A stretch of 64,000 nucleotides of DNA from assembly GCA_964291625.2 (NCBI GenBank), contig OZ220089.1:3616001-3680000 (forward strand), given 5' to 3'. Made by a program: the position numbers and the translations under genes. Position 1 is the stretch's first letter; each line of letters begins with the position of its first letter. The notes beneath the pieces are model-generated. The model saw only the letters and a list, made by a program, of their open reading frames with translations, had not been told where the DNA came from and ran no database searches. Below, in pieces: positions 5,800-23,934 of the stretch. Source of the DNA: Candidatus Latescibacterota bacterium. GTDB lineage: Bacteria > Latescibacterota > UBA2968 > UBA8231.

Positions 5800-6079
5800 A
5801 TTGCTCGCCTCGGTCCTGGGTCTGATTCGGGGTGAAGGGGCCGAACACGTTTGAAAAATAGGCCGAGACACACAAGAAAACACCCCCTGTCCCCCGGAGG
5901 GCACACAAGAATCACACACCCATGGGGTAGAATGGAGGGCCGAGGAGCCCTGGAGGTTTGACCTGGCCTTCGGCAGGCTCGCATCTGCGTTCGGACAGCA
6001 GGCGCCCGAGGCGCACGTTGCTGCGGGCGCCAAGGGGGCTGCACCCCATGCGAAACGACAAAAAAAGAAAAGCGACATG
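5800..6079. promoter_or_regulatory. Repeated divergent promoter/leader module, copy B
   Basis: ACACAAGAA boxes at 5870 and 5903, TAGAAT at 5928-5933; ends GAAAAGCGACATGAAAGC as in copy D (34447-34464). Confidence 0.75.
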
Positions 6080-6084
6080 AAAGC

Positions 6085-6485
6085 GGCCCCCAGGCGCGGA
6101 CGGCCCACCGAGCGACCGATGGACCCAGACCGCGACCCCGCTTCCCGCAGGGGCACGTGGACGCCGTCCCAACTGACCACCAAGGTGTCGGCCTCGGCCT
6201 TCAGCGGCGCCGCGTCCAGCAAGGCCAGCTCCAGTTGCTCGGCGTGGTCTTCGGCATACTGTCCGATGGTGGTCAACAGATGCTGAATGGCGGTGCGCGA
6301 CGGGGGCTCCGGCAGCAGCTCGGTCAAGGTGGTCTCGACTTCGGCCGGGACCAGATGGGCGCCCAGAAGGACCGTGACCCGCTCCAGGGGCGGTACCATG
6401 AGTCGTTGGCCCATGCCGCAGCGTTCATCCAAGGGCACCCAGCTGGGGCCGCCCCGGTCCGGCTGATAGAGCCGACGTGGCACTT
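6085..6485 (-). mobile_element. ISKra4-type transposase internal fragment (remnant)
   Basis: Minus-strand translation RRLYQPDRGGPSWVPLDERCG...PSRTAIQ...LVVSWDGVHVPLRE resembles the ISKra4/UPF0236 region up to the first catalytic Asp. It begins just after the ATGAAAGC start at 6077. Confidence 0.65.
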
Positions 6486-6487
6486 GG

Positions 6488-6541
6488 ACCTACAAGTTCG
6501 AGGCGAGAGTCAGGGACGAGGAAGGAAAGAGCAAGATCGGG
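6488..6541 (+). pseudogene. Remnant of a metalloprotease stalk (homologous to 14062-14115)
   Basis: Reads TYKFEARVRDEEGKSKIG versus TYRFEAKLENLEGESEVG in the proteases starting at 10942 and 15234. Confidence 0.55.
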
Positions 6542-6796
6542 GAGCAACTGACCTCCCACACGACCTGCGCGATGAGTAAGCGGCGGCGAGGTGGACGACG
6601 TCGTCACAATCATGTTCCCGCACCCGGAGGCACCGCGAGCACTGGAGCCTCGACAACCAGCCCTACCTATAGGGCGCCGGCGGGTTCAACTCGGCCAGTT
6701 GCCGGTGCTCTACCGGGCTCAGACCGCGGCTGACGAATTCCCTAAGCAAATGCCTCGCGCCATCCATCCAGATCATCTCTCAAAGAGGAGATCGCA

Positions 6797-7621
6797 ATGA
6801 TCGGTCGAATCGCAATATCCTTCCTGTTCGCCGTGCCGCTGGCGGCGCAGACCAAGAACGTCCAGGACTACCTGCCCCTGGCTGTGGGCAACTCCTGGAC
6901 CTACGAGCATGAATACTGGAACGACAGACCGGGGCAGGAAGCCCCGCTTCAGATCACCGAGTTCACGATCTCCATCCTGCGTACGGAGGTCATCGATGGG
7001 GACACGTACTATGTGTTCTCAAGCCCGAGCGTCACCCTGCCGGGCGATTCTCCGAAGCACTTCATCGCCGGCAAGAAGCTGCGGTGGGATGGCAACAACC
7101 TGGAAGAACACGACGGCACCTCGTCGTCCTCTGTGTATCGGTTCGAGGTGCCAACGAGTAGCACTGATGCAACCGTCAGTGAGTATTCCATCTCCGCTCA
7201 TGGAGATACTCTGGCAAGGGCGATGGCCTATCTGAGACACCACAGCAGATTGATGTACCAGAGCTTCAGCTTCCTTGGCAACATGCCTGCTGACAACTGG
7301 CCTCCAACCAGAGGCGTCCTCTTCACGGAGCAGTATGGACTCCAATGGGCGATTGAAATCTGGATGGCCGGCGATGTGGGATCCAAAGCGATCACGATAT
7401 CCCCTGTACGAGCTGTGCTTCAGACCGCCTCCTCCTCATCCTCCACGTCTCGCGACAGGGATATCCCTGCCGAGACCTCCTCTGTCACTATCGAATGGGA
7501 TGACTACAACTGCTATTCCAGCGGCAATCACATCAAGTACGGCTCCACCTGCAACTATCCCCCCACCTCGTCCTCCTCGGCCTCTTGGGGCCTCATTAAG
7601 GCTGGGAGATCCAGTCGATAA
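6797..7621 (+). CDS. Secreted hypothetical protein, YLPLAVGNSWTY / C-terminal SWGxIK family (P1)
   Basis: 274 aa; RBS GAGGAG; signal-peptide-like start; QDYLPLAVGNSWTY, GKKLRWDG, ends SASWGLIKAGRSSR. Confidence 0.85.
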   Translation: MIGRIAISFLFAVPLAAQTKNVQDYLPLAVGNSWTYEHEYWNDRPGQEAPLQITEFTISILRTEVIDGDTYYVFSSPSVTLPGDSPKHFIAGKKLRWDGNNLEEHDGTSSSSVYRFEVPTSSTDATVSEYSISAHGDTLARAMAYLRHHSRLMYQSFSFLGNMPADNWPPTRGVLFTEQYGLQWAIEIWMAGDVGSKAITISPVRAVLQTASSSSSTSRDRDIPAETSSVTIEWDDYNCYSSGNHIKYGSTCNYPPTSSSSASWGLIKAGRSSR

Positions 7622-7656
7622 AACCTCTTGTCACAGACTCCAAAAGGGAGATTGCC

Positions 7657-8454
7657 ATGATCGCGCGCACTGCAGTCCTCCTACTCACCGCGCTGGCTCC
7701 ACTGGCAGCGCAGACGAGGAGTGTGCAGGACTACCTGCCCTTGGCTGTCGGTAACTCGTGGACCTATGCCCATCTATTCCTCGACGCCAGAGGCCGCAAT
7801 GAGATCGCTTTTCAGGGCGAGATCACCATCTCGATTCTGCGTACTGAAGTAATCGATGGAGACACGTACTACGTCTTCTCGGACGTGTCTACGGATGCTC
7901 CAGAGGGTGTCCCCAAGCACTTTCTGGCCGGCAAGAAGCTGCGGTGGGACGGCAACAATCTCACTGAGCATGATGGGGCCTCGTCACTCTCACTTTATCG
8001 CTTCGATGTCCCTACGGGAACTGATGGAGTAAGCCGGGAGTATTCCATACCAGAGACGCACGGACACACTTCGGTGAAGTCCTACGCCTTCATCGTATCG
8101 GATCGGTTGATGCTCCAGAGTTTTCAGTTCTCTGGAGAAGGTGCTCGTGGGGCTGTGATCGCCTTCTCCGAGGACTTCGGCCTACAGGAGGCCATCGAGG
8201 GCGAGGCCGCTGGAGACATGCTGGTCATGCAACACACTCTCACCCCAATCCGGGCGGTCTTCCAGACCGGCTCCCAGGACGCTTCCGCTCGTGATGCACA
8301 CACGTCTTCCTCCGCTGTCACAGTCGAGTGGGATGATTACCTCTGCTACTTTGGCAACGATGATGTCTTTCTTGGCGTTAGCTGCAACTACCCTCCCACA
8401 TCCACCTCCTCCAACTCCTGGGGATTGATAAAGGAAGGAAGTGATACCCGATGA
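7657..8454 (+). CDS. Secreted hypothetical protein, same family (P2)
   Basis: 265 aa; paralog of P1; ends SNSWGLIKEGSDTR; stop overlaps the next ATG (ATGA). Confidence 0.85.
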   Translation: MIARTAVLLLTALAPLAAQTRSVQDYLPLAVGNSWTYAHLFLDARGRNEIAFQGEITISILRTEVIDGDTYYVFSDVSTDAPEGVPKHFLAGKKLRWDGNNLTEHDGASSLSLYRFDVPTGTDGVSREYSIPETHGHTSVKSYAFIVSDRLMLQSFQFSGEGARGAVIAFSEDFGLQEAIEGEAAGDMLVMQHTLTPIRAVFQTGSQDASARDAHTSSSAVTVEWDDYLCYFGNDDVFLGVSCNYPPTSTSSNSWGLIKEGSDTR

Positions 8455-8922
8455 GAGTCCTCGTCATCCTGATGGCTTCAATGTTGACCTCTCAGGTAGC
8501 ATATGCTCAATCGCGGGTGACAGACCTTACAACCCTCAGTGTTGTCCTGGTGACCTTTGCGGACGATGTGCCCCACGGGTACACCCGACGGCAACCCACA
8601 GCCGGTATGCCACACACGCTGGTTGCAGGAGATCACGCCTACACCATGGACGACTTCGAGATCAAATTCGGCGTGTCGGGGACGTTCGACAACGAAGAAG
8701 GCATCACCCTTGACAAGGACGAGGAGTTGCCAGCCGTCTACGGTAGTGTCAAGGATTACTTTGATGAGATGTCCGGGGGGAGAGCTTGACTTCGATGTCC
8801 GGATTGTCAATAAGGAAGATCCCAGCGATACGGATCACCCAGAGTGGATTGAGATGCCTGAAGACCGGGCATATTACACAGCCCAAGGCATCAATCAGTC
8901 GGAATTCTTGACCCATGCCTTA
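8451..8922 (+). pseudogene. M6-like metalloprotease N-terminal fragment, frameshifted and truncated (protease 1)
   Basis: VVLVTFADD and YGSVKDYFDEMSGG as in proteases 2 and 3. +1 shift in a G6 run (8775-8780), continuing ELDFDVRIVN...HPEWIEM; cut near 8922 by the kinase remnant. Confidence 0.8.
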
Positions 8923-9269
8923 GTCCGCAGGCCCTCGACGATCCTCCTGGTCTCCCGGTTGAAGGACACCGGCGCCCCCGACTTGGCGTCGAAGACCACC
9001 ACCCCCACCGGCGAGGTGTCGATCAGCGTCTCCAGGTCGGCCCTGGCCCTCCGCTCCTCCCGGTGGCCGGGCATTGGCGATGACCAGGGCCGCCTGCGAT
9101 GCGAACATCACCAGGGTCTCCTCGTCCTCCCGGCTGAACTCGGGGCCTCCCCCCTCCTTGGCTAGGTAGTCGAGGCTCTCGTTTGATGCGCAGCTGGCCT
9201 CGCTCAGCCGGGACAGTCGCTCGCTGAGCGCGGCGACGTCTTCAGGGCGATCTCCTCGGCAGGTCTCAT
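8923..9269 (-). pseudogene. Decayed copy of the hybrid kinase 5' region
   Basis: DNA closely matches 5126-5373 and 5700-5799 (MRPAEE..., EDEETLVMFASQAALVIANA, LIDTSPVGVVVFDAKSG), with the GAF core deleted and frameshifts. Confidence 0.85.
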
Positions 9270-9405
9270 CCGCTGATCTCCGGTCTGAGGGCGATGCCGG
9301 CTCTCAGGGACCGAATTCGAGCAAAAAACCAACAAGACACACAAGAAAACACCCCCGAAGGGGCAAGGAGACACAAAAGCCACACATCCACAAGGTAAAT
9401 TGGAC
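9270..9405. promoter_or_regulatory. Repeated divergent promoter module, copy C (more diverged)
   Basis: ACACAAGAAAACAC at 9339, ACACAAAAGCCACACA at 9371, TAAATT at 9396-9401. Confidence 0.65.
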
Positions 9406-9510
9406 CCCGAAAGTCAGCGCGTCGCGATGACCGGCCTCCGGTCGTCTGCCTTGGACACCGACTTGAATCCCCGACCCGACGACGAAGTAGCGACCAACCG
9501 AGGAGCTGGC

Positions 9511-9790
9511 ATGATAGCTGCAATCGTTCGTCTCATCGGGCTGGTTCTCGCGTTTCCGTGTCGGCGGATCCCCTTCTGGAAGCCCGCGTGCGGCTTCCCT
9601 CCGGTGCACCGGTTCCCGGGCGCAGGTGCTGCGTTCGATCTGACGGATCTGCGCGCCCCGCCGCTGGCGGTGACCACGGACCGCTCTGCGCATTTTCACC
9701 CTGCCCCTGGCCTCCTTGGCGGGAGCCCTGCCGGCTGGGCCGGACAGGGCCTGATCCGCTCCCTGGCCTACACCGGCGGAAACTTCGAAA
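9511..9790 (+). pseudogene. Decayed N-terminus of the 34457/40624 secreted-protein family
   Basis: Across frames reads ADPLLEARVRLPSGAPVPG...TDLRAPPLAVTTDRSAHF versus EPLVEGHVRLASGAPVPG...ADLRAAPLAATTDLSGHF. Confidence 0.75.
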
Positions 9791-9799
9791 AGGCGCCGA

Positions 9800-10085
9800 A
9801 CGCCATCGTCCGCTGACCACCGAGATGGGCTACTTCCGGAGCACCGCGACAAATGGACTACGCGCGCTATCACGCGGCCGGGCTGATCCTCTCCAGCGGT
9901 CCCGTGGAGCGCCGCCGCCAAAGCCCTGGTCGGCCATCTACTCAAACGCAGCGGCATGCGCTGGACCCGAGAGGGAGGCCAGCAGATCCTCAATCTCCGA
10001 GTCCAGGTGCAATCCAACCGATGGGAGGCTTTCTGGAAGTGGTACCTGCTCCAGACGACGCACCAGACCTACAAGAGGGCTGCAC
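9800..10085 (+). mobile_element. ISKra4-type transposase C-terminal fragment (remnant)
   Basis: Frameshifted GYF...MDYARYHAAGLILSSGPVE...LKRSGMRWTREGGQQILNLR...NRWEAFW, matching the SGxxE...RLKRSGxxW motif of the intact transposase at 17744. Confidence 0.8.
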
Positions 10086-10126
10086 AGAGCCGAGGCAACA
10101 CCCGAAACCAACCAAGGAGGCTCCTC

Positions 10127-10945
10127 ATGATCGCTCGTCGTATCGCATTGATCGTGCTGGCGACGCTGGCTCCCCTGGCGTCTCAGACGACGACCTTCGC
10201 AGTGTCCGACCACCTGCCTCTGGCCGTCGGCAACTCATGGACCTACGAAGTGTGGTTCTATGACCATGAGCCGGATGCGGTGACTTACACGGGGTATCGG
10301 GACTCTGAGTCGAAGAGAGTCACGCTTACCATCCTCAAAACAGAGGTATTGGACGGGGAGACCTACTATGTCTTCTCCGACATGCCTACTGGCTGGCCTC
10401 CCGCGCCTGTGCACTCTGTGGCCGGGAAGAAGCTGCGCTGGAACGGAAACAACCTGACCGAGCACAACGGCACATCCTCCTTCTCGGTGCTTCAATTCAG
10501 AGAAGGCCCGGAGGACGGTTCTGTCTTCTATGAATACACGGTGAGTCCTTCGGAGGCTGATGGTAATACGAAGGTAAAGATGTATGTAGCCGCCGACGCC
10601 AACGGCATGTACTCTTCGGGGTTTGACTTACGGGGCGGGACGATCTCTCCTTTTTCGGCAAGAATCGTGAGATTCATCACTGGCTACGGAATGACCTATG
10701 CCCAAGAATCCTACGTCCCAGAGGCAGACATGATGTACCCCACAAGAGAAACTTTCCTGCGCCCAGTAGAAGCTCGTCTTGCTTCGGATGATGACGACGC
10801 CAGAAGACAGACGACGTATCGGATCTATACGTATAAGGAAATCACTAGGGCTTCTTGGGGAGATACTGGCTTCCCCGAAGGGACCTCAGAGACTTCCACT
10901 GATCGGTCTTCTTGGGGTCAGGTCAAGGAGAGGGACCTGCGATGA
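10127..10945 (+). CDS. Secreted hypothetical protein, same family (P3)
   Basis: 272 aa from the ATG after AAGGAGG; DHLPLAVGNSWTY, GKKLRWNG, ends RSSWGQVKERDLR; ATGA overlap with the next gene. Confidence 0.85.
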   Translation: MIARRIALIVLATLAPLASQTTTFAVSDHLPLAVGNSWTYEVWFYDHEPDAVTYTGYRDSESKRVTLTILKTEVLDGETYYVFSDMPTGWPPAPVHSVAGKKLRWNGNNLTEHNGTSSFSVLQFREGPEDGSVFYEYTVSPSEADGNTKVKMYVAADANGMYSSGFDLRGGTISPFSARIVRFITGYGMTYAQESYVPEADMMYPTRETFLRPVEARLASDDDDARRQTTYRIYTYKEITRASWGDTGFPEGTSETSTDRSSWGQVKERDLR

Positions 10946-13900
10946 TGACTCGGGTTGGTGTGCTGGTTGTGATCTTCCTGTGGATCGGGTCACCGGTCCA
11001 CGGCCGGAAGAACGACACCTGGGTGGAGGATACGAACCTCTATGTGGTGCTTGTGAAGTTCGGCTCGGACCTGCCGCATGGATGGGTGGCTGGGTCTCCT
11101 CCGACTCCTGGCGATGACGCCTACACCATGGAGGACTTCGAGCGCCTGTTTGGCGTCGAGGACGCACCAGGGTTTGGAGAGACGGACACACAGTCGGTTG
11201 CGGACGGCAACGAACCGCTGCCCGAGTTGTACGGAAGCATCAAGGACTACTTTGATCATCTGTCGGGCGGCGAGTATGACCTGACCATCAAAATCCTCAA
11301 TCCAGAGGACAGCGAGGGGTATCCCAAGTGGCTTACCATCAACCGTGCAAAGTCGCACTATCTCAACTTGTTCCACCCAGACCGCCAATTCTATGAACAC
11401 AGCATCGAGAAGCTGGAAATGATGATGCCTCGCTGGTATCCCGGCGATCACCTGGACTATGTGATACCGGGATTGCTCCCTCATCCTCCAACCACCGGAA
11501 CCCCAAGTCCAGGCACTCCAGCTCAACGACGCACCAACAAGGTCGCGTTCGTGTATGCTGGGTTCACCTCCGCCAAGGATGCCAATTTCACGGCTCTGCA
11601 TCCGCGAGCAGAAAGCGTGTCCAGCCCCACACCGAGATCAGGGACCGGAGTGGCGTCCTATGCGACATGGTACCAGACGGGTGCGAGGCAAGGGGACGGC
11701 CTCGGTGGTACCGATCCGGCTGAGAAATTCTCGGGTATCGGTATTCACATCCACGAGATCGGCCACATCCTCGGCCTGAGCCATGGAAGAGGCCGGTCCA
11801 ATGTCACCAACCCGTATACCACCGTGAACAGGACACGAGGAACAGCCAACTTCCTGTCTTGGGGTCCCATGTCCTCGAACTCCCAAGGGCCTCACTCCCA
11901 AGGATCAGAGCACCCTACCGATGCGGACTATGCGTATCTGTACCAGTTCCAATCCTGCCCTGCTCCGTACAACCCCGCCTACATGAAGTTCCTTGGATGG
12001 GGAGACCATCATCGAATCACGAGGACCCAGAGCCAGCCCTTCCTCCCGTCTCCCGATGACTACTACTACATCGAGGGAGAGAACGACTCCAGATATCACT
12101 TCGACTTCCGCTCTGCGGACGACTTCGGTCATTACGTGCTCTCTCATGCGTTTGAAGATGCTCCTGGTCTGATGATCTGGAAGCACCGACAAGAGCCCCC
12201 GAGTGCGTACATATCCGCTACTGCACCCCGTGTCATCCCGGCCGACGGCCGATCCATATACAATGCCTTGCCGAACACAAAGAGCGGAGCCACGGTCAAG
12301 GAATTCAGCAGCACGGCGACCTACGCCTGGCTCGATCTCCTGTCGGACCCGTTCGGGGCTCTGCCCGACAACGGATCCGAGCAGACGATCCGAGCCTTAC
12401 CGCATTCGGTGGACAATCCCACCGAGCTGCCCTCGGTGCTGACCTATCGAAATCCCGAGCACCGATGGACGCCCGACTGGGCGACGGATGCGTCTCTGTT
12501 TCGGCAGAGGAACAGTGCAGGGCAGGACCGGCCATCCCATGTCGCCGTCCGCAACATCCACATCCTCCGCGATGAAGAGGGGTCCGGGTCTGCCGTAGCC
12601 AACGTCTACAAGAATTACCAGGAGGGCCCTCTCCATGAGGACATGGTCGAGTGGAGCGGAGACGTCTACGTCGGAGCGGACGTGACCATCGGAGAAGACC
12701 AGACCCTGGACATTGCCGATGACGCCGTCGTCCATTTCCTGGCACCTCGAAGTGCCGGCCCGACCTCGGAGCATCCCCACGGGGTGGACCCCAACGGTAC
12801 GAACATCACAGAGCTTATCGTCCAGGATAGTGGCACCCTCAACATCGGCAGGAACGTGACCTTTCGGTCCATGCGGGAGGAGTATACGGACTCTGACGGG
12901 GATCGAGTGGAGCAAGACGATGTCGATCCGGAGGGTCATGGCCTCATCGTCGAGTCGGGGGGCGAGGTCACCATCCAGGGCCTGACCATCACCGATGGCG
13001 ATCACTACCTGTACAGCGAGGGGGAGGTGACTCTGGCCGGGGACCTGAGGATCTCAGGCAAGCACTCCTCGTTGAACCTGCGTCGGAGCCCGTCCACTGC
13101 GGACGCCGCCGACGAGGCCGTGACGATCAAGATCGCATCCGGTGACGCGGCCATGGACGGCAGGGACGAAACCAAGGTGGAGATCATCGTGGACGGAGCG
13201 AAGTGGAAGGGTCAGACCCTCGTCGAGGCGGCCGAGCTGAACGCCCTCAACGACACCTTCGAGCCCGCCGATGACAACACGTCCGGATGGCAGGGCATCG
13301 AGATCAACGCCAACTCCGGCGGACGGGTGCACCTGACGGGAGCGACCCTGAAGGAAGGGGATTGGTGTCTGCGTGTGCCCTACCCGGAGCACGTCACGCT
13401 GGGCAACGCCACCTTCACCAACTACGGCCTGATGAAGCCGGTCGGGGATCACGACGTGCGCGAGTTCGAGAAGCTCGGCGACGACTACTGGACCGCCGGC
13501 TACAAGGTCCGGAGTTCCGTCACCGGCCCCAAAGACTCCCCGGCGAGTGTGGCCTGGTCCCTGTCCGGAGACGATGCCGGCCAGCTCGAGATCCATGCCG
13601 GCAGCGGTGTCCTGACGTTCGCGGATCCCGGGGCCGACTTCGAGGCTCGCTCGGACCGCGTCTACACGGCCACGGTCCAGGCCATCGTTGGACCGCCCGC
13701 CGTTCCTCTCGCCACGGTCGAGCAGGACGTGAAGATCACGGTCCTGGACGTCCCGGCTCCCGATGCGCCGGCCGTCACCCTGGATCCCGACAGCGGCCGT
13801 GAGACGGCGGGTGCGACGGTCACCCTGGACAACGACCAGGGAATGCGGGTGAGGCAGGTCCTGGCCCGGCTGTCGTCGGTGCCGGCGGAGGACCCGGACG

Positions 13901-14316
13901 GCACGCGCCAGTGGCACCCGCTGGGCCGGCCCAACGCGCCCGGCGCCCCGAGCGAGGCGGACGGGTACTACGAGACCTCGATCGCGTACACGAACGACAA
14001 CACCTACGAGTCCTGGAAGGAGTCCGGCACGGCGTACGAGTGGAGCGTATCGCCCAACCGGACCTACCGGTTCGAGGCGAAACTCGAGAACCTCGAAGGA
14101 GAGAGCGAGGTCGGGAGCGTCTCGTACACCCCCCCGCCGAGGGATCCTCTGACCATCTCGGGCCCGTCCACGCCGTTCTACTATATCGACTGGACGGCTC
14201 CCATCGGGACGTACAAGGAATGGCCCCGAGTTGTCTCGGTCCACTACACCTTCGACACAAATGACTCTCACATCCCGCATCTCGCCGGCTCAGCCGGCGC
14301 AAGGAGATGGCAATGA
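10942..14316 (+). CDS. M6-like (immune inhibitor A-like) metalloprotease with partial stalk, C-terminally truncated (protease 2)
   Basis: 1124 aa; signal peptide; VVLVKFGSD, YGSIKDYFDHLSGG, HEIGHILGLSH. Similarity to protease 3 stops abruptly at 14215, and there is no FlgD-type tail. Confidence 0.85.
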   Translation: MMTRVGVLVVIFLWIGSPVHGRKNDTWVEDTNLYVVLVKFGSDLPHGWVAGSPPTPGDDAYTMEDFERLFGVEDAPGFGETDTQSVADGNEPLPELYGSIKDYFDHLSGGEYDLTIKILNPEDSEGYPKWLTINRAKSHYLNLFHPDRQFYEHSIEKLEMMMPRWYPGDHLDYVIPGLLPHPPTTGTPSPGTPAQRRTNKVAFVYAGFTSAKDANFTALHPRAESVSSPTPRSGTGVASYATWYQTGARQGDGLGGTDPAEKFSGIGIHIHEIGHILGLSHGRGRSNVTNPYTTVNRTRGTANFLSWGPMSSNSQGPHSQGSEHPTDADYAYLYQFQSCPAPYNPAYMKFLGWGDHHRITRTQSQPFLPSPDDYYYIEGENDSRYHFDFRSADDFGHYVLSHAFEDAPGLMIWKHRQEPPSAYISATAPRVIPADGRSIYNALPNTKSGATVKEFSSTATYAWLDLLSDPFGALPDNGSEQTIRALPHSVDNPTELPSVLTYRNPEHRWTPDWATDASLFRQRNSAGQDRPSHVAVRNIHILRDEEGSGSAVANVYKNYQEGPLHEDMVEWSGDVYVGADVTIGEDQTLDIADDAVVHFLAPRSAGPTSEHPHGVDPNGTNITELIVQDSGTLNIGRNVTFRSMREEYTDSDGDRVEQDDVDPEGHGLIVESGGEVTIQGLTITDGDHYLYSEGEVTLAGDLRISGKHSSLNLRRSPSTADAADEAVTIKIASGDAAMDGRDETKVEIIVDGAKWKGQTLVEAAELNALNDTFEPADDNTSGWQGIEINANSGGRVHLTGATLKEGDWCLRVPYPEHVTLGNATFTNYGLMKPVGDHDVREFEKLGDDYWTAGYKVRSSVTGPKDSPASVAWSLSGDDAGQLEIHAGSGVLTFADPGADFEARSDRVYTATVQAIVGPPAVPLATVEQDVKITVLDVPAPDAPAVTLDPDSGRETAGATVTLDNDQGMRVRQVLARLSSVPAEDPDGTRQWHPLGRPNAPGAPSEADGYYETSIAYTNDNTYESWKESGTAYEWSVSPNRTYRFEAKLENLEGESEVGSVSYTPPPRDPLTISGPSTPFYYIDWTAPIGTYKEWPRVVSVHYTFDTNDSHIPHLAGSAGARRWQ
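12664..14215 (+). repeat. ~1.55-kb near-identical direct repeat of 16986-17621 + 19204-20119
   Basis: Long stretches identical by eye, from GTCTACGTCGG...GACGTGACCATCGGAGAAGACCAGACCCT to GCTCCCATCGGGACGTACA. Confidence 0.92.
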
Positions 14317-15233
14317 TCGCTCGCATCGCAGTGCTCGTCCTAGGTGCGCTTCCACTGAGAGCACAGACGATAGACCCAACCGCCGACGGCTCCAGCTACA
14401 CCGTGCAGGACTCCTATACGATCCAGGACTTCATGCCGATGGCCGTCGGCAACTCATGGACCTTCGAGCATCTGTACATGGACCAACGCCACTTCTACGA
14501 TCCGGACCACACGGAGAATCTGCATCTCACGGATAGTATCCACCATGGCTCTGGGTACTTCCCCACCTGGGATGCTTCTGACAAACGTCTGACGATCTCC
14601 ATTGTCCGCACGGAAGTGCACGATGGGAACACGTACTACGTGTTCTCGGCCACCCTGCCCTCAGGCAGCTGGCCGCCGGCCCCCGGGTTCACGGAGTCCA
14701 GCACCACAAAGCTCCTGCTCGGGATGAAACTTCGATGGGATGGGGACACTATCATGATGTGGGACGGAGTGTCCGCTGTAGAGCTGCTTCGGTTCCCTGC
14801 TCTTCCCAGCAATTCTGACCTTAGAGTCGAAGATACTGCCTATAACGCCTCGATTGACGGTCAGTCCTACCCCGTCAGCACATATAGTAGACTGAGTCGT
14901 CTCAACGACATTCCCGAGATTGGATTCGCTTTCTCTTCGCACGGATTCGGATCCGGGATAGGGTTCGTCGGCGGATTCGGAGTCATCGGCACTACCCTAT
15001 CCAGCGACCGCATTGACATAGATGTTGGTCCTCCTTTTTGGAACGAGCTTTTCGGAGTGGAGGCCACTCTTGTGGTGGATGGCGACGGCGGTAGCCGAGA
15101 CTCCTCCGACATCTCAGACAGTCAAGAGACTATCACCATTGACAGGTCTGACCTCCGGTATTGGCAACGCAGGGGTCGCCGATCCACCTCCCTCACAAAC
15201 TCATCTTGGGGTGCCGTAAAGGAGACCGACTGA
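14313..15233 (+). CDS. Secreted hypothetical protein, same family (P4)
   Basis: 306 aa from the ATG after AAGGAG; QDFMPMAVGNSWTF, GMKLRWDG, ends NSSWGAVKETD; stop directly abuts the next ATG (TGAATG). Confidence 0.85.
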   Translation: MIARIAVLVLGALPLRAQTIDPTADGSSYTVQDSYTIQDFMPMAVGNSWTFEHLYMDQRHFYDPDHTENLHLTDSIHHGSGYFPTWDASDKRLTISIVRTEVHDGNTYYVFSATLPSGSWPPAPGFTESSTTKLLLGMKLRWDGDTIMMWDGVSAVELLRFPALPSNSDLRVEDTAYNASIDGQSYPVSTYSRLSRLNDIPEIGFAFSSHGFGSGIGFVGGFGVIGTTLSSDRIDIDVGPPFWNELFGVEATLVVDGDGGSRDSSDISDSQETITIDRSDLRYWQRRGRRSTSLTNSSWGAVKETD

Positions 15234-17621
15234 ATGACACGGAGCTGCGCCACAGCCATGGCCATCCTGGCGTTTCTCGTGGAGGATGGCATGGCCCAGA
15301 GATTGCGTTGGACTCGCAACACGACGCTGAACGTAGTCCTTGTAACCTTCCCGGACGATCTGCCCCAGGGCCATACCCGGAGCGACGACGGGGATGATTC
15401 CACCTACGATCTGGTGCCGGGGTCCACGGCCTACAAGATCAGCGACTTCGAGCGTCTCCTCGGTGTAGACGAAGCCGATGACTTCGGCAGTTTCGCTAAT
15501 CCGACAGGGGTTAGAGTGGGCACGGACGAAGACCTCCCCGAGACCTATGGCAGCCTGAAGAAGTACTTCGATGACATCTCTGGAGGAGACTACAACCTCA
15601 CTGTGAGGATCCTCAACCCCCCTCATCCTGATTCGGATCACGACGAGTATCCTCGCTGGATGGAGATGGCTCTAAACAAGAGCCACTACAGAGCAATCCC
15701 CATCCGCAATACTCCCCCGCCGTATACAAGGCGCGAATTCTTCATAGATGCCACAGCCATCCTGCACAGTGGCACGATAGATCTCTCATCGTTTTCGGAC
15801 GTGCCCAGCAATGACTCTGGGCGATCTCTGACAACCGCAAACAAAATCGTCTTCATCCACTCGGGAACGTCCATTTCAGATGGATCTGTATTGCATCCTC
15901 AGGTGGACGCCTTCAGAGGATATCGGTATGTCATCGGCGAGCGGATGGGTCTTGCCTCTGATCGAGAGAGAGCTGACGATGCCATCCGGTTTGGTGGACT
16001 CAGTCTCCATGCCCACGAGATCGGTCATCTGTTGGGGTTCCGCCATCCTGGAGGATTCTCAACGGTAGAGAATGTCTACCGGATGCAGACTCCAGGAGAC
16101 ACCTACAGGGACGGGGACGGCAATCGGCAAACCTATGAGCGATGGGGTGGGGCGGACATGGCGGGATGGGGCCTCATGCAAGGAGATGAGAACGGACCCG
16201 CCCTGGAGAGCAGCTTGCCGAGAGACACAGATTATGCCTATGTGGCCTCTCACAGATCATGCCCTCAGTATTACAATGGCATCTTCATGAGAGACCTTGA
16301 TTGGGGCACCCATACTCCCATCACCACGACAACGCAGAGCCAGAGGGTTGATCCGGCGCCGGATGACTTCTATCACATTGAGTACCAGCACACCGTCATC
16401 CATGGGGTTCAGCGACCGCGATGGATCGTGCTGGACTTTCGCACGGCGGTCGATTGGGGACAGTATGTGAGTTGGTACCGCTTCGCGCAGCCAGCGGGGC
16501 TGTTGGTCTGGAGAGGAGACTTCTGGAGTGCACAGTTGCTCCCTGCCGATGGACGGCCCCTCAGCAATGCCCTGGGTGTGCATGCTGGGTACTCCTCTCG
16601 TGAATTCAGCACGACGGACATCTATCCCTGGATGGAGAGATTGTCCGATCCGTTTGGGGCAATTGAAGGCAACGGACTTCGGCAGACCATTCTCTCGATG
16701 AAAGCCTACAAGGAAGACGGCGAGACTCTGACGGACGATCCGCTGGTATTGACGGGGGGCACCCATCGGTGGACGCCCGATTGGGCGACGGATGACAATC
16801 TGCTGACCCTGATAAACCAAACGGATGTTGATTCTGACTTGATCACGGAGACCTCCGACACCCATATCGCTCTGAGAAACATACATGTGGTGCGCGGCGG
16901 AGCCTCGGGGTATGCTTTGGTGAATGTCTACCTCAACTACCAGGAAGGGCCTCTCCCGGATGATGCGGTAGAGTGGAGTGGCAGTGTCTACGTCGGTGCC
17001 GACGTGACCATCGGAGAAGACCAGACCCTCGACATTGCCGATGACGCCGTCGTCCATTTCCTGGCACCTCGAAGTGCCGGCCCGACCTCCGAGCATCCCC
17101 ACGGGGTGGACCCCAACGGTACGAACATCACAGAGCTTATCGTCCAGGATAGTGGCACTCTCAACATCGGCAGGAACGTGACCTTTCGGTCGATGCGGGA
17201 GGAGTATACCGACTCTGACGGCGATCGAGTGGATCAAGAGGATGTCGATCCGGAGGACCACGGCCTCACCGTCGAGTCGGGGGGCGAGGTCACCATCCAG
17301 GGCCTGACCATCACCGATGGAGATCACTACCTGTACAGCGAGGGGGAGGTGACTCTGGCGGGGGACTTGAGGATCTCAGGCAGGAACTCCTCGTTGAACC
17401 TGCGTCGGAAACCGTCCACCGCGGCCGGTACCGACGAGGCCGTGACGATCAAGATCGCATCCGGTGACGCGACCATGGGGGGAGAGAACACCTCCAAGGT
17501 GGAGATCATCGTGGCCGGAGCGAAATGGGACGACAAGACCCTTGTCGAGGCGGCCGAGCTCAACGCTGTCAACGACACCTTCGAGCCCGCCGATGACAAC
17601 ACGTCCGGATGGCAGGGCATC

Positions 17622-19195
17622 GGGCACCTTAGGCGATTGTTATAGCGGGATTTGGGGACGTATGTGTATGTTTTCCAGTGACTTGCTGTCGGTGGCCGCC
17701 TCCCCCGCGGCCGGCTCCCCTGCCTTGACGAAGGAGGGGAGCGATGACCGCGATTCTCTCTCTGGCGCCCTTTCAGCGGCGGCCGCTGTGGGAGCGCTTC
17801 CGAGATCAAGCGCATGAAGCCCTGGATGCGTTGCTGGATCGGCTGGAAGCCGGCATGACCCAACCCGGAAGTTGTGCGCCGACGTTGATGGAGATCACCG
17901 ACGCGGTGTCCCAAGAGCGCGCCGGACTCACCGCGGCCCTGGTGGAAGGCTTCGTCGAACGCCGCCATGGCCCGTTGCTGACGCAACAAGAGGCGGCTTG
18001 CCCCCAGTGTGAGCGCCTCTTGCCGGCGCGGGCTTCGCGCTCTCGCACGGTGGAAACCCTCTTGGGGCCGGTGACCTTGGAGCGGCCCTATTTCTACTGC
18101 GCGGCCTGTCACCACGGGTTCTATCCGCTGGACGAGGCCTTGGCTTTGTCGGGGCACCGCAAGCAGACGGACGTGCAGCAGGCCGGAGTCAAGCTGGCGC
18201 TGGAGATGCCCCACCAGCGCGCCTCGAAGCTGTTGGACGAGCTGACCGACGCGTCGATGAGCGACCGTGTGATTCACGAGGTGCTGCAACAGACCGGGGC
18301 CTTGGACGTGCTGCAGGTGTGTCCAGACGCGGCCGACATCCAGGATCGCATTGCCCGGGCCGCCGCCGGCCGCAAGTGGCGGCCGATCGTGGTGTTGGCC
18401 ATCGACGCGGCCGACGTGCCCAGCCGTCCCGAGACCGCCAAAGGGACGCGTCCCGGGCGCAAGAAGAGCCGGGCCCGGCGAAGGCGCTGGCAGGGGGAAT
18501 ACCACGAGGCCAAGGGCTTTCGCTTCTACCTGGTCGACGACGACCGCATCGAGCAGTTGATCTCCTGGCACCAGATGGGCGACGAACAGGCTTTCGGTGC
18601 GGCTTTGCGCCAAGTCCAGGAGGCGGGCCTGATCCCGGAGGACCAGGTGCGCTTGTGTGCCATCGCCGATGGCGCCCCGTGGATCTGGAAGTGGGTGGAA
18701 GAGCTGTTCCCGAAGGCCCGTCAGATCCTCGACTACTACCATTGCAGCGGCTACCTGCACGCGGTGGCCGAGGCGCAATACGGTGCCGACGGGACCCGGG
18801 CCGCTCATTGGCTGGAGGCGGCCCTGGCCCGCCTGTTCTGCGGCGAGGCGGCGGGCGTGGTCTGGGGTCTGCAGCGCATGCAGCCGGTCTCGGACGAGGC
18901 CGAAGAGGCGATCGGCGCGGCCGTGACGTACCTGCACAAGCGGCTGCACCAAGTCGACTTCGGCAGTCATCGGAAGGGGGGCTACCCGATCGGCTCCGGG
19001 GCGATCGAGTCGGCCCATCGTTTCATCGGCCATGTTCGCCTGAAGCGATCCGGCGCCTGGTGGTATCAGGAAAACAGCAACGCCATCCTGGCCCTGCGCT
19101 GCGCCCTCTACAACGGTACCCTCGATCGCGTCTTCCAGAAGCACCAAGATCACCTCACAAAATCACCGGAACCGTAACAATCACCTAATGCACCC
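17622..19195 (+). mobile_element. Complete ISKra4-type insertion sequence (1574 bp)
   Basis: Left IR GGGCACCTTAGGCGATTGTTA versus right IR (reverse complement) GGGTGCATTAGGTGATTGTTA, 17/21 identical; 8-bp target duplication AGGGCATC at 17614-17621 and 19196-19203. Confidence 0.93.
17744..19177 (+). CDS. ISKra4-family DDE transposase
   Basis: 477 aa; CPQC...RPYFYCAAC...YPLDEAL; LAIDA; IADGAPWIW; ILDYYH; IGSGAIESAH...RLKRSGAWW. Confidence 0.9.
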   Translation: MTAILSLAPFQRRPLWERFRDQAHEALDALLDRLEAGMTQPGSCAPTLMEITDAVSQERAGLTAALVEGFVERRHGPLLTQQEAACPQCERLLPARASRSRTVETLLGPVTLERPYFYCAACHHGFYPLDEALALSGHRKQTDVQQAGVKLALEMPHQRASKLLDELTDASMSDRVIHEVLQQTGALDVLQVCPDAADIQDRIARAAAGRKWRPIVVLAIDAADVPSRPETAKGTRPGRKKSRARRRRWQGEYHEAKGFRFYLVDDDRIEQLISWHQMGDEQAFGAALRQVQEAGLIPEDQVRLCAIADGAPWIWKWVEELFPKARQILDYYHCSGYLHAVAEAQYGADGTRAAHWLEAALARLFCGEAAGVVWGLQRMQPVSDEAEEAIGAAVTYLHKRLHQVDFGSHRKGGYPIGSGAIESAHRFIGHVRLKRSGAWWYQENSNAILALRCALYNGTLDRVFQKHQDHLTKSPEP

Positions 19196-20664
19196 AGGGC
19201 ATCGAGATCAACGCCAACTCCGGCGGACGGGTGCACCTGACGGGAGCGACCCTGAAGGAAGGGGATTGGTGTCTGCGTGTGCCCTACCCGGAGCACGTCA
19301 CGCTGGGCAACGCCACCTTCACCAACTGCGGCCTGATGAAGCCGGTCGGGGATCACGACGTGCGCGAGTTCGAGAAGCTCGGCGACGACTACTGGACCGC
19401 CGGCTACAAGGTCCGGAGTTCCGTCACCGGCCCCAAAGACTCCCCGGCGAGTGCGGCATGGTCCCTGTCCGGAGACGATGCCGGCCAGCTCGAGATCAAC
19501 GCCGGCAGCGGCGTCCTGACGTTCGCGGATCCCGGGGCCGACTTCGAGGCTCGCTCGGACCGCGTCTACACGGCCACCATCCAGGCCGTCGTTGGACCGT
19601 CCGCAGCTCCTCTTGCCACGGTCGAGCAGGACGTGAAGATCACGGTCCTGGACGTCCCGGCCCCCGATGCGCCGGCCGTCACCCTGGATCCCGACAGCGG
19701 CCGTGAGACGGCGGGGGCGACGGTCACCCTGGACGACGACCAGGGAATGCGGGTGAGGCAGGTCCTGGCCCGGCTGTCGTCCGTGCCGGTGGATGACCCG
19801 GAAGGCACGCGCCAGTGGCACCCGCTGGGCCGGCCCAACGCGCCCGGCTCGCCGAGTGAGGCGGACGGGTTCCACGAGACCTCGATCGCGTACACGAACG
19901 ACAGCACCTACGAGTCCTGGAAGGAGTCCGGCACGGCGTACGAGTGGAGCGTATCGCCCGACCGGACCTACCGGTTCGAGGCGAAACTCGAGAACCTCGA
20001 AGGAGAGAGCGAGGTCGGGAGCGTCTCGTACACCCCCCCGCCGAGGGATCCTCTGACCATCTCGGGCCCGGCCACGCCCTTCTACTACATCGACTGGACG
20101 GCTCCCATCGGGACGTACACCGCGGCCGACAGCGACGGCGACGCGGTGACGGGTCTCTCCTGGACGGCCTCGGACGACAAGTTCGTCATCAGCGAGGCCG
20201 GGCAACTGAGCTGGGCCACCGGCCAGAGGCCCGCCTACAGCGAGAGCGGCCGCAACGAGTACGAGGTGAACGTCGAGGCCAGCAGCTCGACCCACGAGTC
20301 GCCCGAGTACGCCGTCACGGTAACCCTCCGGCGCAATACCGCCGGGCAGGTCTCCCTGACGAATTCCGATCCGCCGACCTCGGGGGAGACGATGGTGGCC
20401 AGTCTCACCGATCCCGATGATCCCAAGACCATCCTGTCGTGGACTTGGGCCCGGATCTCCGGGGACGACGAGACGCCGCTGACGGGCACGGACTCCGAGG
20501 ATGGTCTGACATCGAAGTACCAGATGGACAGCGAGGACGTAGGCGCCCGGGTCCGCGCCACGGTTACCTACGACGACGCTCACCAGGACGGGGCGACGGC
20601 CGCCCGCACGACGGCGGCTGTGGAGCCGGGGAACAGTGCGCCGACGATCTCGGGCGAAGCGACG

Positions 20665-22421
20665 GTCACCATGGACGAGCATAGCACCACGGTGGCCTCC
20701 TACGAGGCCGATGATCCCGACGCAGTCGACACGATCACGTGGCAGGCTCTGGAGGGCGCGGACGCCGACAGCTTCGAGGTGGAAGGCACGGGGAACACCC
20801 GCACCCTGAGGTGGCGGAACGCCCCCGACTACGAGAAACTGCCCAAGTATCAGTTCACGGTGGTCCTGAAGGTCCGCGACAACCACGGGGCCCTGAGCGA
20901 CCCGAAGACCGTCACCGTCAAGGTGCGCAACATCGACGAACCGGGCACCGTCACCCTTTCCACCTATCCTCCCAAGCCCTGCGCGCCCGTCTCCGCAACC
21001 CTCAGGGATCCGGATGGGGGCATCACCTTGGAGGGAAGAGACACCTACGGCTGGATGTGGCCGATCCAGGATTCCCCGCCGTCGCCGGCCCGTGCGCCCC
21101 CGCGTCCTTTGGTTGCCACCCGAACCTACACGCCGAAGAACCGGGACGTGGGCAAGACCATTCAGGCAACGGTCCAGTACGGAGACGCTCAGGGCCCCAA
21201 CAAGAGCGCCACGTCCGCCTCCAGCACCACCGTGGTCGCCAACATCCCACGAGCTCCCGGACGCTACATGGTGACGGGTGGGGTGGAGTCGGTCCGCCTG
21301 GCCTGGACCAAGCCGGACGATTGTGGCTCGGAGATCACCGAGTACCAGTACAAGTATCGGCGGGGCACCGGCGACTGGACGACCGGCACGATCGACAAGA
21401 GCCAGACCTCCCATACGATCAGCGGGCTGGATGGAGGCGTCGAGTACCAGGTGCAACTGCGAGCCCGCAACGGCGTGTCTCACAACTCGGGCTACAGCGC
21501 GGCGGTCACCAGCTCCGCCACGACGATTGACGGGAATGATCCTCCCACACTGGAAGGCCCCGGGGAGGTCACCATGGACGAGCATAGCACCACGGTGGCC
21601 TCCTACGGGGCCGATGATCCCGACGCAGGCGACACGATCACGTGGGAGGCTCTGGAGGGCGCGGACGCCGACAGCTTCGAGGTGGAAGGCACGGGAAACA
21701 CCCGCACCCTGAGGTGGCGGAACGCTCCCAACTACGAGGAACTGCCCAAGTATCAGTTCACGGTGGCCCTCAAGGTCCGCGACAACCACGGGGCCCTGAG
21801 CGACCCGAAGAGCGTCACCGTCAAGGTGCGCAACATCGACGAACCGGGCACGGTCACCTTCTCCACGACGGTCCCCAAGGCCTGCGGGTCCGTCACGGCC
21901 ACTCTGCGAGATCCGGACGGCGGCATCAACCTGGAGAACACGGACGAGACCTATGGATGGGCGTGGACCGCTCAGGATTCGCCGCCGGCCCGTGCACCGC
22001 TCATACCGGTGTCCGTCACCGAGTCCTACGAGGTCCGGAACCGAGACGTGGGCAAGACGCTTCGGGCCTCGGTCTTGTATGGGGACTCTCAAGGTCCCGA
22101 CAAGTCCGCCGCTGCCACTACTCTGACCATACTGGCCAATGTCCCGAAGGCCCCTGGGGGCTACGATGTCACCGGTGGGGTGGAGTCGGTCCGCCTGGCC
22201 TGGACCAAGCCGGACGATTGTGGCTCGGCGATCACTGAGTACCAGTACAAGTATCGGCGGGGCACCGGGAACTGGACGACCGGCACGGTCGGCAAGAGCC
22301 AGACCTCCCATACGATCAGCGGGCTGGATGGAGGCGTCGAGTACCAGGTGCAACTGCGAGCCCGCAACGGCGCGTCTCACAACTCGGGCTACAGCGCGGC
22401 GGTCACCAGATCCGCCACGAC
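20665..22421 (+). repeat. Intragenic tandem duplication (~900-bp period) of a cadherin-like + Ig-like + FN3 block
   Basis: GTCACCATGGACGAGCATAGCACCACGGTGGCC at 20665 and 21568; FN3 parts nearly identical. Confidence 0.9.
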
Positions 22422-23934
22422 ACAGCATGGGAATCGCGGTCCCACACTCGACGACGGCACGGCCTCCGTGGCGGAGAACTCCACTGCTGTCGGCACCTAC
22501 ACGGCGACCGACCCCGACGCAGGAGATGTCCTCCGATGGAGCCTGAGCGACGAAACGACGTTCAGCATCACGGCCTCGTCGGACACGCGCAGTGGTACCC
22601 TGGTCTTCGACAACGCTCCCAACTACGAGACCAAGAGCAGTTACTCGGTCGTCATCACGGTAACGGATCAGGCCGGGGCCACGGACACGGGCACCATCGG
22701 CATCACGGTCACCAACGAGGACGATCCCGGTGTCGTCATCCTCACCCCGTCGTCGCCTCGTGTCGGAGATACCGTCCGGGCGGCCTTGACCGACGAAGAT
22801 GGGGTCACCAACGCCCAGGGCTGGGCGTGGTCTACCGAATCGAGTGCCTCTTCCGCCTCGGGCGAGGGCTCGGACCGCACGCCCCGGTTCAACACGGAAT
22901 TCGACGTCACCAGTGCTCATGTCGGCCAGTACATCAAGGCCTCTCGGAGCTATGACGACAATCACGGGTCGGGCAAGTCCGCGACCGGCACCACCGGGAG
23001 CGTCCGCGCCAACAAGCCCAAGGCGCCGCCCAACCTCCGCGCGGCTCGCGGCGATGGGGAGGTCACCCTGACGTGGGATGCGGCCGATGACCAGGGAGCC
23101 ACCATCGACCGCTACAACTACCGCTACAAGACCCGTGACGGCACGTACGGCAACTACAAGCGTGTCTACTCCCGGAGCAAGACCATCGACGGTCTCACCA
23201 ACGGCACCGAGTACGATTTCCAGGTGAGGGGGCACAACTCCGAGGGCTTCGGGCCTCCCTCGTCCACCTCCGCCACTCCGGCCGGCAAGCCCGATGCCCC
23301 GAGCGGCTTCAGCCATGGGCGCAGCGGGGCCAACTCGGTCACCGTCTCGTGGGACGAGCCGGAGGACAACGGCTCGGCCATCACGGGGTACTACTGGTAC
23401 AAGAGACAGGGGCCGACGTGGAGTGCTCCGACATGGGTGACGGACAGAGAGTTCACGGACGACAATTCCTGGAACGCCCGGTCGCATAGATACGCGGTCA
23501 GGTCCAAGAACGGCGTCGGAGAAAGCGACATGGCCGAGTACACCGTGCCCGCAGAGGAGCAGAGGAGGTCGGCCAAGCCTGTGGCCGACTTCGCGGACTC
23601 GACCGGCTTCGGGGTCATGGCGGCCCCCAATCCGTTCAACCCGGAGACCGCGATCTTCCTGGCTCTCCCCGAGGCGATGGCGGTGAGTCTGACCGTCTAC
23701 GGCATCACCGGCCAGGAGGTCGCCAGTCTCCGCGAGGGGCAGGTGCTGGAGGCTGGGCTACACAGCATCCGGTGGGCCGGGAGAGACGACCAGGGACGGC
23801 CTGTGGGCTCAGGAATCTATCTGTACAGACTCCTCGCTGGGACCGAAGCGAGGGTTGGGAAGATGCTGCTGATTCGGTGAGGCGGCGGTGACATGAGGCG
23901 GGTCGCAGACCGGAACTCAAAAGGAGTTGAAGCG

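Follow-up and report, generated by a model that had tools for sequence, protein, structure and literature searches.

We analysed a window of 64,000 nucleotides (nt) from a Candidatus Latescibacterota bacterium (assembly GCA_964291625.2, contig OZ220089.1, positions 3,616,001 to 3,680,000 of the forward strand), which carries an array of genes for small, putatively secreted partner proteins and giant metalloproteases. The host genome (here G000) comprises 5.9 Mb in two contigs, with a G+C content (GC) of 69.5%. There are four partners (P1 to P4) and three proteases, each beginning with an M6-like head; the last continues into a long cadherin/fibronectin type III (FN3) stalk that ends in a sorting domain of the type IX secretion system (T9SS) type. 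The heads of proteases 2 and 3 are strongly diverged and lead into nearly identical stalk segments, here called the arm. Heads and arms give conflicting trees, and arrays of the same layout recur in other genomes.

Structure of the array

An initial annotation, made from the letters of the window alone, had described three units of a partner coupled to a protease, with a fourth partner preceded by a stalk remnant. All its coordinates check for the four partners, the three protease starts and the couplings, in which stop and start codons overlap as ATGA at 8451 and 10942 and abut as TGAATG at 15234; the stalk remnant is also there. Proteases 2 and 3 form such units, but protease 1 is only a stub, lacking both arm and zinc motif. 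The features are as follows. Other genomes are named G002, G004, G007, G019 and G160, L-numbers denote loci, and loci representing the same DNA under two names were counted once.

6138..6491, minus strand: fragment of an ISKra4-like insertion sequence (IS), 5' of the array, 96% identical to the IS inside a paralog locus (C1:1565592-1565945)
6486..6541, plus strand: remnant of the stalk's first FN3-like domain, from an older, deleted unit, 77% identical to 14060-14115 and 19964-20019
6548..6698, plus strand: foreign gene fragment fused 3' of the stalk remnant, 82% identical to C1:1652412-1652563 and relatives
6797..7621, plus strand: partner P1, 274 amino acids (aa), with a signal-peptide-like N-terminus and a C-terminal SWGxxK
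7657..8454, plus strand: partner P2, 265 aa
8451..8922, plus strand: protease 1 stub, the N-terminal ~155 codons of an M6-like head, cut ahead of the zinc motif
8923..9356, minus strand: what remains of a GAF-PAS histidine kinase gene, truncating protease 1, 93% identical to 5126-5374 and 77% to 5701-5887
9737..10103, plus strand: ISKra4-like 3' remnant directly 5' of P3, 81-90% identical to IS copies in G000 and G007
10127..10945, plus strand: partner P3, 272 aa, predicted all-beta open sheet or half barrel
10942..12663, plus strand: protease 2 head, predicted M6/InhA-fold metallopeptidase with HEIGHILGLSH (weak TIGR03296 match, structure model, Foldseek)
12664..14215, plus strand: protease 2 arm, 1552 nt, 95.0% identical to its protease 3 counterpart, no T9SS tail
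14216..14301, minus strand: group II intron 5' stump, ~86 nt, aligning to the 5' ends of RF02005 introns in G004 and G007
14307/14313..15233, plus strand: partner P4, 308 aa from the first ATG
15234..17621, plus strand: protease 3, 5' piece, with the head (HEIGHLLGFRH) and the start of the arm from 16986
~17622..19194, plus strand: ISKra4 insertion in protease 3, transposase 17744-19177 (NF033572, 243 bits, cut-off 205)
19195..23880, plus strand: protease 3, 3' piece, with the remainder of the arm (to 20119), cadherin/FN3 stalk and FlgD_ig/T9SS-type sorting domain

The region ahead of P1 is a patchwork of the IS fragment, the FN3 remnant and the foreign gene fragment. P1 is followed directly by P2 and has no protease of its own. 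The open reading frame of protease 2 continues past the arm to 14316, and its truncation junction is the intron stump, which abuts the ribosome-binding site of P4. We had considered 14215 as a designed cassette end, and dropped this because the stump sits there. Copies of this intron family all begin after CTCC on their own strand, that is, antisense at a GGAG resembling a ribosome-binding site (window 14216-14301; L099 4818-4892 and 12049-12129; L100 1916-1990).

An IS splits protease 3; it is flanked by a 9-nt target repeat, and because of it no uninterrupted tail-bearing gene exists at the locus today. The cadherin, FN3 and FlgD domains of protease 3 lie within 19231-23880, with the sorting domain at about 23614-23838. 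The annotation reserved both stalk and tail for this last gene. That holds for the T9SS-type tail but not for the stalk, of which the protease 2 arm holds one cadherin-like and one FN3-like stretch.

Four sequencing runs share words with the locus (X1 to X4); three of them are sponge metagenomes, X4 is possibly the source sample and X1 belongs to a separate study. X4 contigs have one extra base near 8774, so that the frameshift of protease 1 there is probably an assembly error.

Identity step and tree conflict

The partners of the window are 32-55% identical in pairs. Between heads 2 and 3, 469 codons align at 43% identity, and their synonymous sites are saturated. Sliding identity confirms the sharp step that had been placed at 12664. 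In the ungapped alignment of proteases 2 and 3, 26 of 81 nt mismatch just before the arm (12583-12663), followed by 48 of 636 (12664-13299) and 30 of 925 (13291-14215), or 78 mismatches over the 1552 nt of the arm, which ends at 14215. Synonymous divergence (dS) within the arm is 0.16 before the IS position and 0.058 after it. An assembly artefact, which the initial annotation named as grounds for giving up its proposal, is ruled out: the arm copies differ at 5% of sites, and X4 contigs span both head/arm boundaries with no differences (9852-12738 and 14186-17060). At the arm end X4 contigs extend 30 letters into the arm, one under the bridging threshold. X1 holds P1, P2-protease 1, the arm, P4 and stalk pieces at 90-97% identity.

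The rows of the trees were those whose arm start could be aligned; the heads of locus C, L057 and L064 were added. In the head tree (12 rows) head 2 groups with head P0124 (support 100/99) and the locus B head (99/98), and an approximately unbiased test rejects a clade of heads 2 and 3 (p 0.000118). The arm tree (9 rows, built on the initial 140 residues of the arm) pairs arm 2 with arm 3 (99/98), and an insert is common to arms 2 and 3 and the P0124 arm. Since the heads are not sisters and the arms are, one of the two genes is a chimera, and head/stalk recombination took place. To judge from these trees, the arm fits the head 2 lineage, which suggests that P4-head 3 is the incomer and displaced P3-head 2. 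GC is 54-59% in partners and heads, 66% in the arm and 69.5% in the genome.

The same independence appears more widely. Of 276 gene pairs compared, 9 have in common a tract of at least 85% identity within 3 kb 3' of the head, and in 6 of these the heads are less than 70% identical; conversely, 8 of the 11 pairs with heads at least 70% identical share no such tract. Short contigs and frameshifts affect some rows of this survey. By these alignments heads and stalks assort separately.

Recurrence in G000 and other genomes

In G000 we find 14 partners in seven loci. Ten are followed by a protease or stub, and all seven full heads are preceded by a partner. Besides three intact full-length genes of the family, one is split by an IS. 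G000 stubs break at differing places, one of them at a group II intron remnant.

The initial annotation called for different heads on one stalk in related genomes, and these are seen in two arrays of G160, where distant or unrelated heads sit on an arm of 89-97% identity. Seven tail-less units there match the terminal stalk over 2.3-3.3 kb; four of the alignments begin at stalk position 1442-1468, and the arms end within ~730 nt of one another. The tail-less heads belong to three M6 subfamilies and one unrelated family, and in both arrays the tail is on the last unit. Array 1 runs from a head without family name through an M6 head of another subfamily to a window-family head (arms of 2.9-3.3 kb, 90-96% identical), then a short armless M6, and lastly an unrelated head with full stalk and tail, for which no Pfam match was found; a tail-bearing near-duplicate of this last unit lies further on. 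Array 2 has four tail-less units, 89-97% identical to the stalk, with heads of the window family, of another subfamily (twice) and of InhA type with propeptide, before a fifth unit that bears the tail. Each M6 head of G160 is preceded by at least one small SWGxxK gene, some of them partner homologues, and GC is 47-59% in partners and heads vs 66-67% in the arm. A stalk arm common to unrelated low-GC heads requires fusion of head and stalk.

At L055 a stub and three tail-less units, the three with a common end codon, precede a last gene that extends into the stalk and is then cut by an insertion; the arms are 82-88% identical to their stalk counterpart. The stub at L062 is of a different M6 type, and its final 224 nt match the gene downstream of it at 87% identity. 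In G002 two different heads become 98.5% identical over their closing 66 nt, at the head/arm boundary; both contigs stop there. In all five arrays with a visible tail (window, locus B, L062 and the two of G160) it is the last unit that bears it; the last gene of L055 is cut before any tail and falls outside this count.

Most records of partner homologues come from Candidatus Latescibacterota. The head profile matches in 18 of 168 genomes of the phylum at E 1e-15, 16 of them (G000 included) in one family; an orthologous array is absent from the nine other genomes of the genus. A scan of metagenomes of the Joint Genome Institute (JGI) reduced 544 pattern matches to one locus, a lone partner and protease.

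Three further loci are described here for their layout. Locus D of G000 (C1 ~3039000-3066000) encodes an M6-like protein of 3051 aa from another subfamily, preceded by a small gene of its own and followed by a headless stalk of 2220 aa. Locus G (C2 1098394-1107274) has a partner and full-length protease between inverted copies of one IS and resembles a composite transposon; in the distal stalk it is 96% identical to its paralog at locus C. At L072 (10805-12316) a partner is followed by stalk pieces 95-98% identical to L073, the head being deleted.

Heads, tail and export

We modelled the protease 2 head (predicted local distance difference test, pLDDT, 80.5). In a Foldseek search its best match was InhA2 (4yu6; E 4.6e-7, prob 1.00, template modelling score 0.43-0.47), and the four matches with E below 0.001 among at least 500 rows were all InhA2. 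TIGR03296 gave 27 bits, below its curated cut-off of 110.8, and the head profile had no matches among PDB sequences. HExxH is present in nine of nine aligned heads and HExxHxxGxxH in eight. As modelled, the head is an M6-fold metallopeptidase.

Within the array only protease 3 has a T9SS-type tail, a FlgD_ig/PorU-CTD-like domain that ends in KMLLIR and resembles the C-terminus of the PorU model, with a score under the cut-off (E 3.2e-8). Genes above cut-off in G000 include SprA and two PorU, so that the genome has a T9SS, and by its tail domain protease 3 would be exported through it. Protease 2 keeps a ribosome-binding site, start codon, signal-peptide-like N-terminus and intact catalytic head. 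The idea that the upstream units are silent orphan cassettes therefore fails, as upstream genes keep their own starts and signal peptides.

Partners and the SWGxxK motif

The partners form one family, with 398 homologues among 8000 scored candidates. Those of the window (265-308 aa) are mutually homologous, and once aligned they have no cysteine after the signal peptide. Partners have N-termini that look like signal peptides by eye and usually end in SWGxxK. None of the four matched Pfam or NCBIfam, and PDB sequences gave nothing under E 0.025. The P3 model (pLDDT 89.4) is an all-beta sheet with no Foldseek match at E below 0.001; the best structural match (4fvs) had Z 7.1 over 157 aligned residues at a root-mean-square deviation of 4.9, none reaching Z 8. 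In the Atlas the best match (0.88) is an unnamed cluster, and a cluster at 0.78 has DUF3108_like on 14% of its members, a lead only. A few relatives have a partner domain joined to a T9SS-type tail or to leucine-rich repeats (LRR), or one that stands without a protease.

Partner and head trees, whose comparison the initial annotation had proposed, largely agree, and identities of partners and heads correlate (rho 0.85 over 24 pairs). Such correlation is what joint inheritance of linked genes would give and is no proof of binding. The partner may be a cognate inhibitor or chaperone. That partners outlast proteases would fit a protective role, by analogy with orphan immunity genes.

[ST]WGxxK ends 54 of 21388 reading frames in G000 vs none in a control window, and never occurs on the same frame as a T9SS-type tail (118 frames). 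It may be a second C-terminal sorting signal. Our literature searches covered open-licence papers, and for the spellings searched they returned no paper on an SWG/TWG motif. L103 has near-identical small SWGxxK genes with a weak beta-helix match, four at 3393-6119 and three at 16301-18351, which stand in tandem ahead of a 474-aa head without family name on the shared stalk. At L021/L022 (G019 C2 ~4331000-4339000) a tandem of LRR genes ending in SWGAIK lies directly 5' of a partner-protease array.

These observations bear on whether tail-less units are simply working genes, periplasmic or exported by an SWGxxK-tagged partner, with arrays widening the enzyme set. The intact front of protease 2 agrees with this, as do the counts of the motif and the triple amplification of a tail-less unit at L055, with nonsynonymous divergence (dN) below dS. 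Many units are stubs or IS-split, however, and the sorting role of SWGxxK is itself putative; we consider this account very unlikely.

Proposed displacement of N-terminal modules

The best reading of the locus, which we hold with about even confidence, is an N-terminal displacement array of partner-protease modules. The unit would consist of a gene for a small secreted partner and, in translational coupling with it, one for a giant T9SS cargo. This cargo would run from an M6 metalloprotease head through a cadherin/FN3 stalk to a C-terminal sorting domain. A new, lower-GC module of partner and head would recombine into the first 1.5-3 kb of a resident stalk and capture its tail, leaving the earlier module upstream with a duplicated arm and no tail; in the window the incomer would be P4-head 3 and the displaced module P3-head 2. 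Displaced units may undergo further duplication, and IS elements, group II introns and deletions would wear most of them down, the partners lasting longer than the proteases. The upstream polarity of tail-less units follows, because a 5'-partial gain always leaves the tail-less copy upstream. The data show that a chimera exists and that the layout recurs, and they also establish the head fold and the T9SS genes; how the exchange came about and which module moved we infer, as we do for T9SS export and for the partner as cognate inhibitor or chaperone.

Several findings weigh against this reading. No donor of P4-head 3 with its native arm was found (the nearest heads are 35-36% identical), and the direction of the event therefore rests on one outgroup. 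The intron-stump junction at 14215 suits a later deletion as well as an insertion border. Stalk tracts are shuffled at varied offsets between stand-alone genes, and general mosaicism may suffice. The correlation between partners and heads reflects linkage and kinship, and at loci C and G partners are 92% but heads only 72% identical. In G000, 4 of the 14 partners have no protease or stub behind them, loci D and F end without a full-length member, and three intact full-length paralogs (2463, 2434 and 2675 aa) stand alone. The L055 units diverge evenly (78% aa identity, dS ~0.4) with no step between head and arm; as their alignment has it, a truncated unit was duplicated there, not swapped.

The intact paralogs of 2434-2675 aa, with the varied breaks of the stubs, go part of the way towards what the initial annotation gave as a refutation, namely independent full-length paralogs decaying at random breakpoints. 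In the corresponding alternative, tandem full-length paralogs had their stalks homogenised by gene conversion and later lost their tails, without displacement. The patchy identity of the arm, the intron, IS and kinase debris at breakpoints and the second tail-bearing near-duplicate behind one G160 array are all in keeping with it. We nevertheless think it unlikely, since random loss of tails predicts something other than a tail on the last unit in five of five arrays, and the fusion needed to place unrelated heads on one arm lies beyond conversion alone.

The upstream units might instead be a maintained reservoir, kept by selection and recombined onto the tail-bearing stalk so as to switch the displayed enzyme and its partner. 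The geometry permits this, with perfect tracts of 110-133 nt in the 3' arm, and orphan re-fusion of the Koskiniemi type is cited in PMC5361080. The initial annotation proposed a search for a conserved truncation point. In G000 truncation is varied and tied to mobile elements, but G160 arms begin at a recurring stalk position and end close together, and the three L055 units share their end codon. Truncated units also have dN below dS (L055 heads 0.145/0.407; window arm 0.057/0.16 and 0.025/0.058), although these low ratios may predate truncation or stem from conversion. In G000 most upstream pieces lack an arm, being stubs interrupted by mobile-element debris, and we noted neither a recombinase nor a border motif. 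Among the contigs we saw no re-fusion of P3-protease 2 to the stalk, which they could not reveal, as a crossover inside the arm leaves no joint in assembled contigs. X4 depths of ~19-23 upstream, 12.7 for P4-head 3 and 12.6-14 for the stalk suggest no large re-fused subpopulation, contig depth not being equal to cell share. One X3 contig agrees with head 2 as far as 12713, while its other 705 nt differ from the window and could be another stalk or an insertion, a hint only; the protein fragment beyond 12713 had no match among 4246 candidates. Taken as a whole, a maintained reservoir seems improbable.

Latescibacterota could also have a general N-terminal cassette exchange for T9SS cargo. Libraries of partners and heads (several M6 subfamilies and unrelated heads), equipped with homology arms, would then be kept ahead of a single tagged stalk, recombination would switch which enzyme is displayed together with its cognate secreted guard, and the partner would be exported via SWGxxK, a mirror of Rhs/CdiA orphans. 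We put this forward tentatively, as rather doubtful.

Neighbouring genes

A GAF-PAS-kinase-receiver-winged-helix hybrid gene (window 3382-6120, minus strand) is the divergent neighbour of several such secreted-protein loci (A, B, E and L025). It is highly repeated in G000 and the runs, and is perhaps a regulator of the loci. On either side of the array (window 189-3398, 23893-29421 and 29836-33504) lie secreted HExxH proteases of a different paralog family, which carry WD40/LRR and Ig repeats and a T9SS-type tail as in protease 3.

Comparison with known systems

In the literature searched we found no description of N-terminal displacement arrays and related concepts, nor a match for Latescibacteria, sponge and M6 protease together; five other papers that came up were not on this system, judged by title or opening of the abstract. 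The array layout is real and recurrent and, within the limits of these searches, undescribed. CdiA, Rhs and MafB loci keep orphan toxin-immunity cassettes with a homology arm downstream and swap C-termini. Displacement arrays are known for cargo with N-terminal export signals; the T9SS signal is C-terminal, so a mirror layout is expected, and the window locus and its relatives look like such a case. They would offer a route to surface-enzyme diversification in sponge symbionts, with a new family of protease partners that may be a new class of inhibitors.

With the M6 (immune inhibitor A) family the predicted head shares its sole significant fold match, InhA2, the HExxH motif and a weak TIGR03296 match. 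The window heads differ in lacking an InhA-type propeptide, in their giant cadherin/FN3 stalk and T9SS-type tail, and in having HExxHxxGxxH where the InhA motif has an Asp-type third zinc ligand. The Porphyromonas gingipains (RgpA, Kgp and HagA) are T9SS proteases with differing catalytic domains and shared, recombining adhesin regions, kept alike by gene conversion. In this they resemble the present genes, which likewise carry differing catalytic domains on shared, recombining regions and a T9SS-type tail; we know of no coupled partner genes or upstream tail-less arrays in gingipains.

The potempins of Tannerella forsythia, as described in two papers (PMC4404884, PMC9890683), are lipoproteins of 98-132 residues with unrelated sequences and oligonucleotide/oligosaccharide-binding (OB) or 8-stranded barrel folds, and all KLIKK enzymes retain their C-terminal domain. 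Both systems have a small secreted gene directly upstream, with a stop that overlaps or abuts the peptidase start, clustered arrays, and differing N-terminal enzymes on a near-identical C-terminal part. The partners here differ in forming one homologous family of ~250-300 aa with C-terminal SWGxxK and no clear fold match, the upstream units in being tail-less with a kilobase-scale stalk arm, and protease 3 in ending in a FlgD_ig/PorU-CTD-like domain, not a KLIKK domain. By analogy, the window partners may inhibit their proteases.

With the C-terminal displacement and orphan modules of Rhs/CdiA and the effector-immunity arrays of Vibrio cholerae, as described in PMC5361080 and PMC3482391, the arrays share one tail-complete gene accompanied by displaced modules of enzyme and partner with a homology arm, partner genes that outlast enzymes, and the plausibility of homology-facilitated recombination. 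The arm typical of polymorphic toxin arrays is found in the window (95% over 1552 nt), in G160 (89-97%) and at L055 (82-88%). Here, however, the variable part is N-terminal, the leftovers lie upstream and retain start codons and signal peptides, and the constant stalk is C-terminal. The cargo, moreover, would be an extracellular M6 protease with a secreted partner, rather than a toxin-immunity pair. What survives of the inverted polymorphic-toxin layout of the initial annotation is head/stalk recombination, joint travel of partner and head, and a recurrent layout. The arrays thus resemble a blend of polymorphic toxin and potempin/KLIKK systems and are members of neither, being close to the Tannerella pairs and not a polymorphic toxin system.

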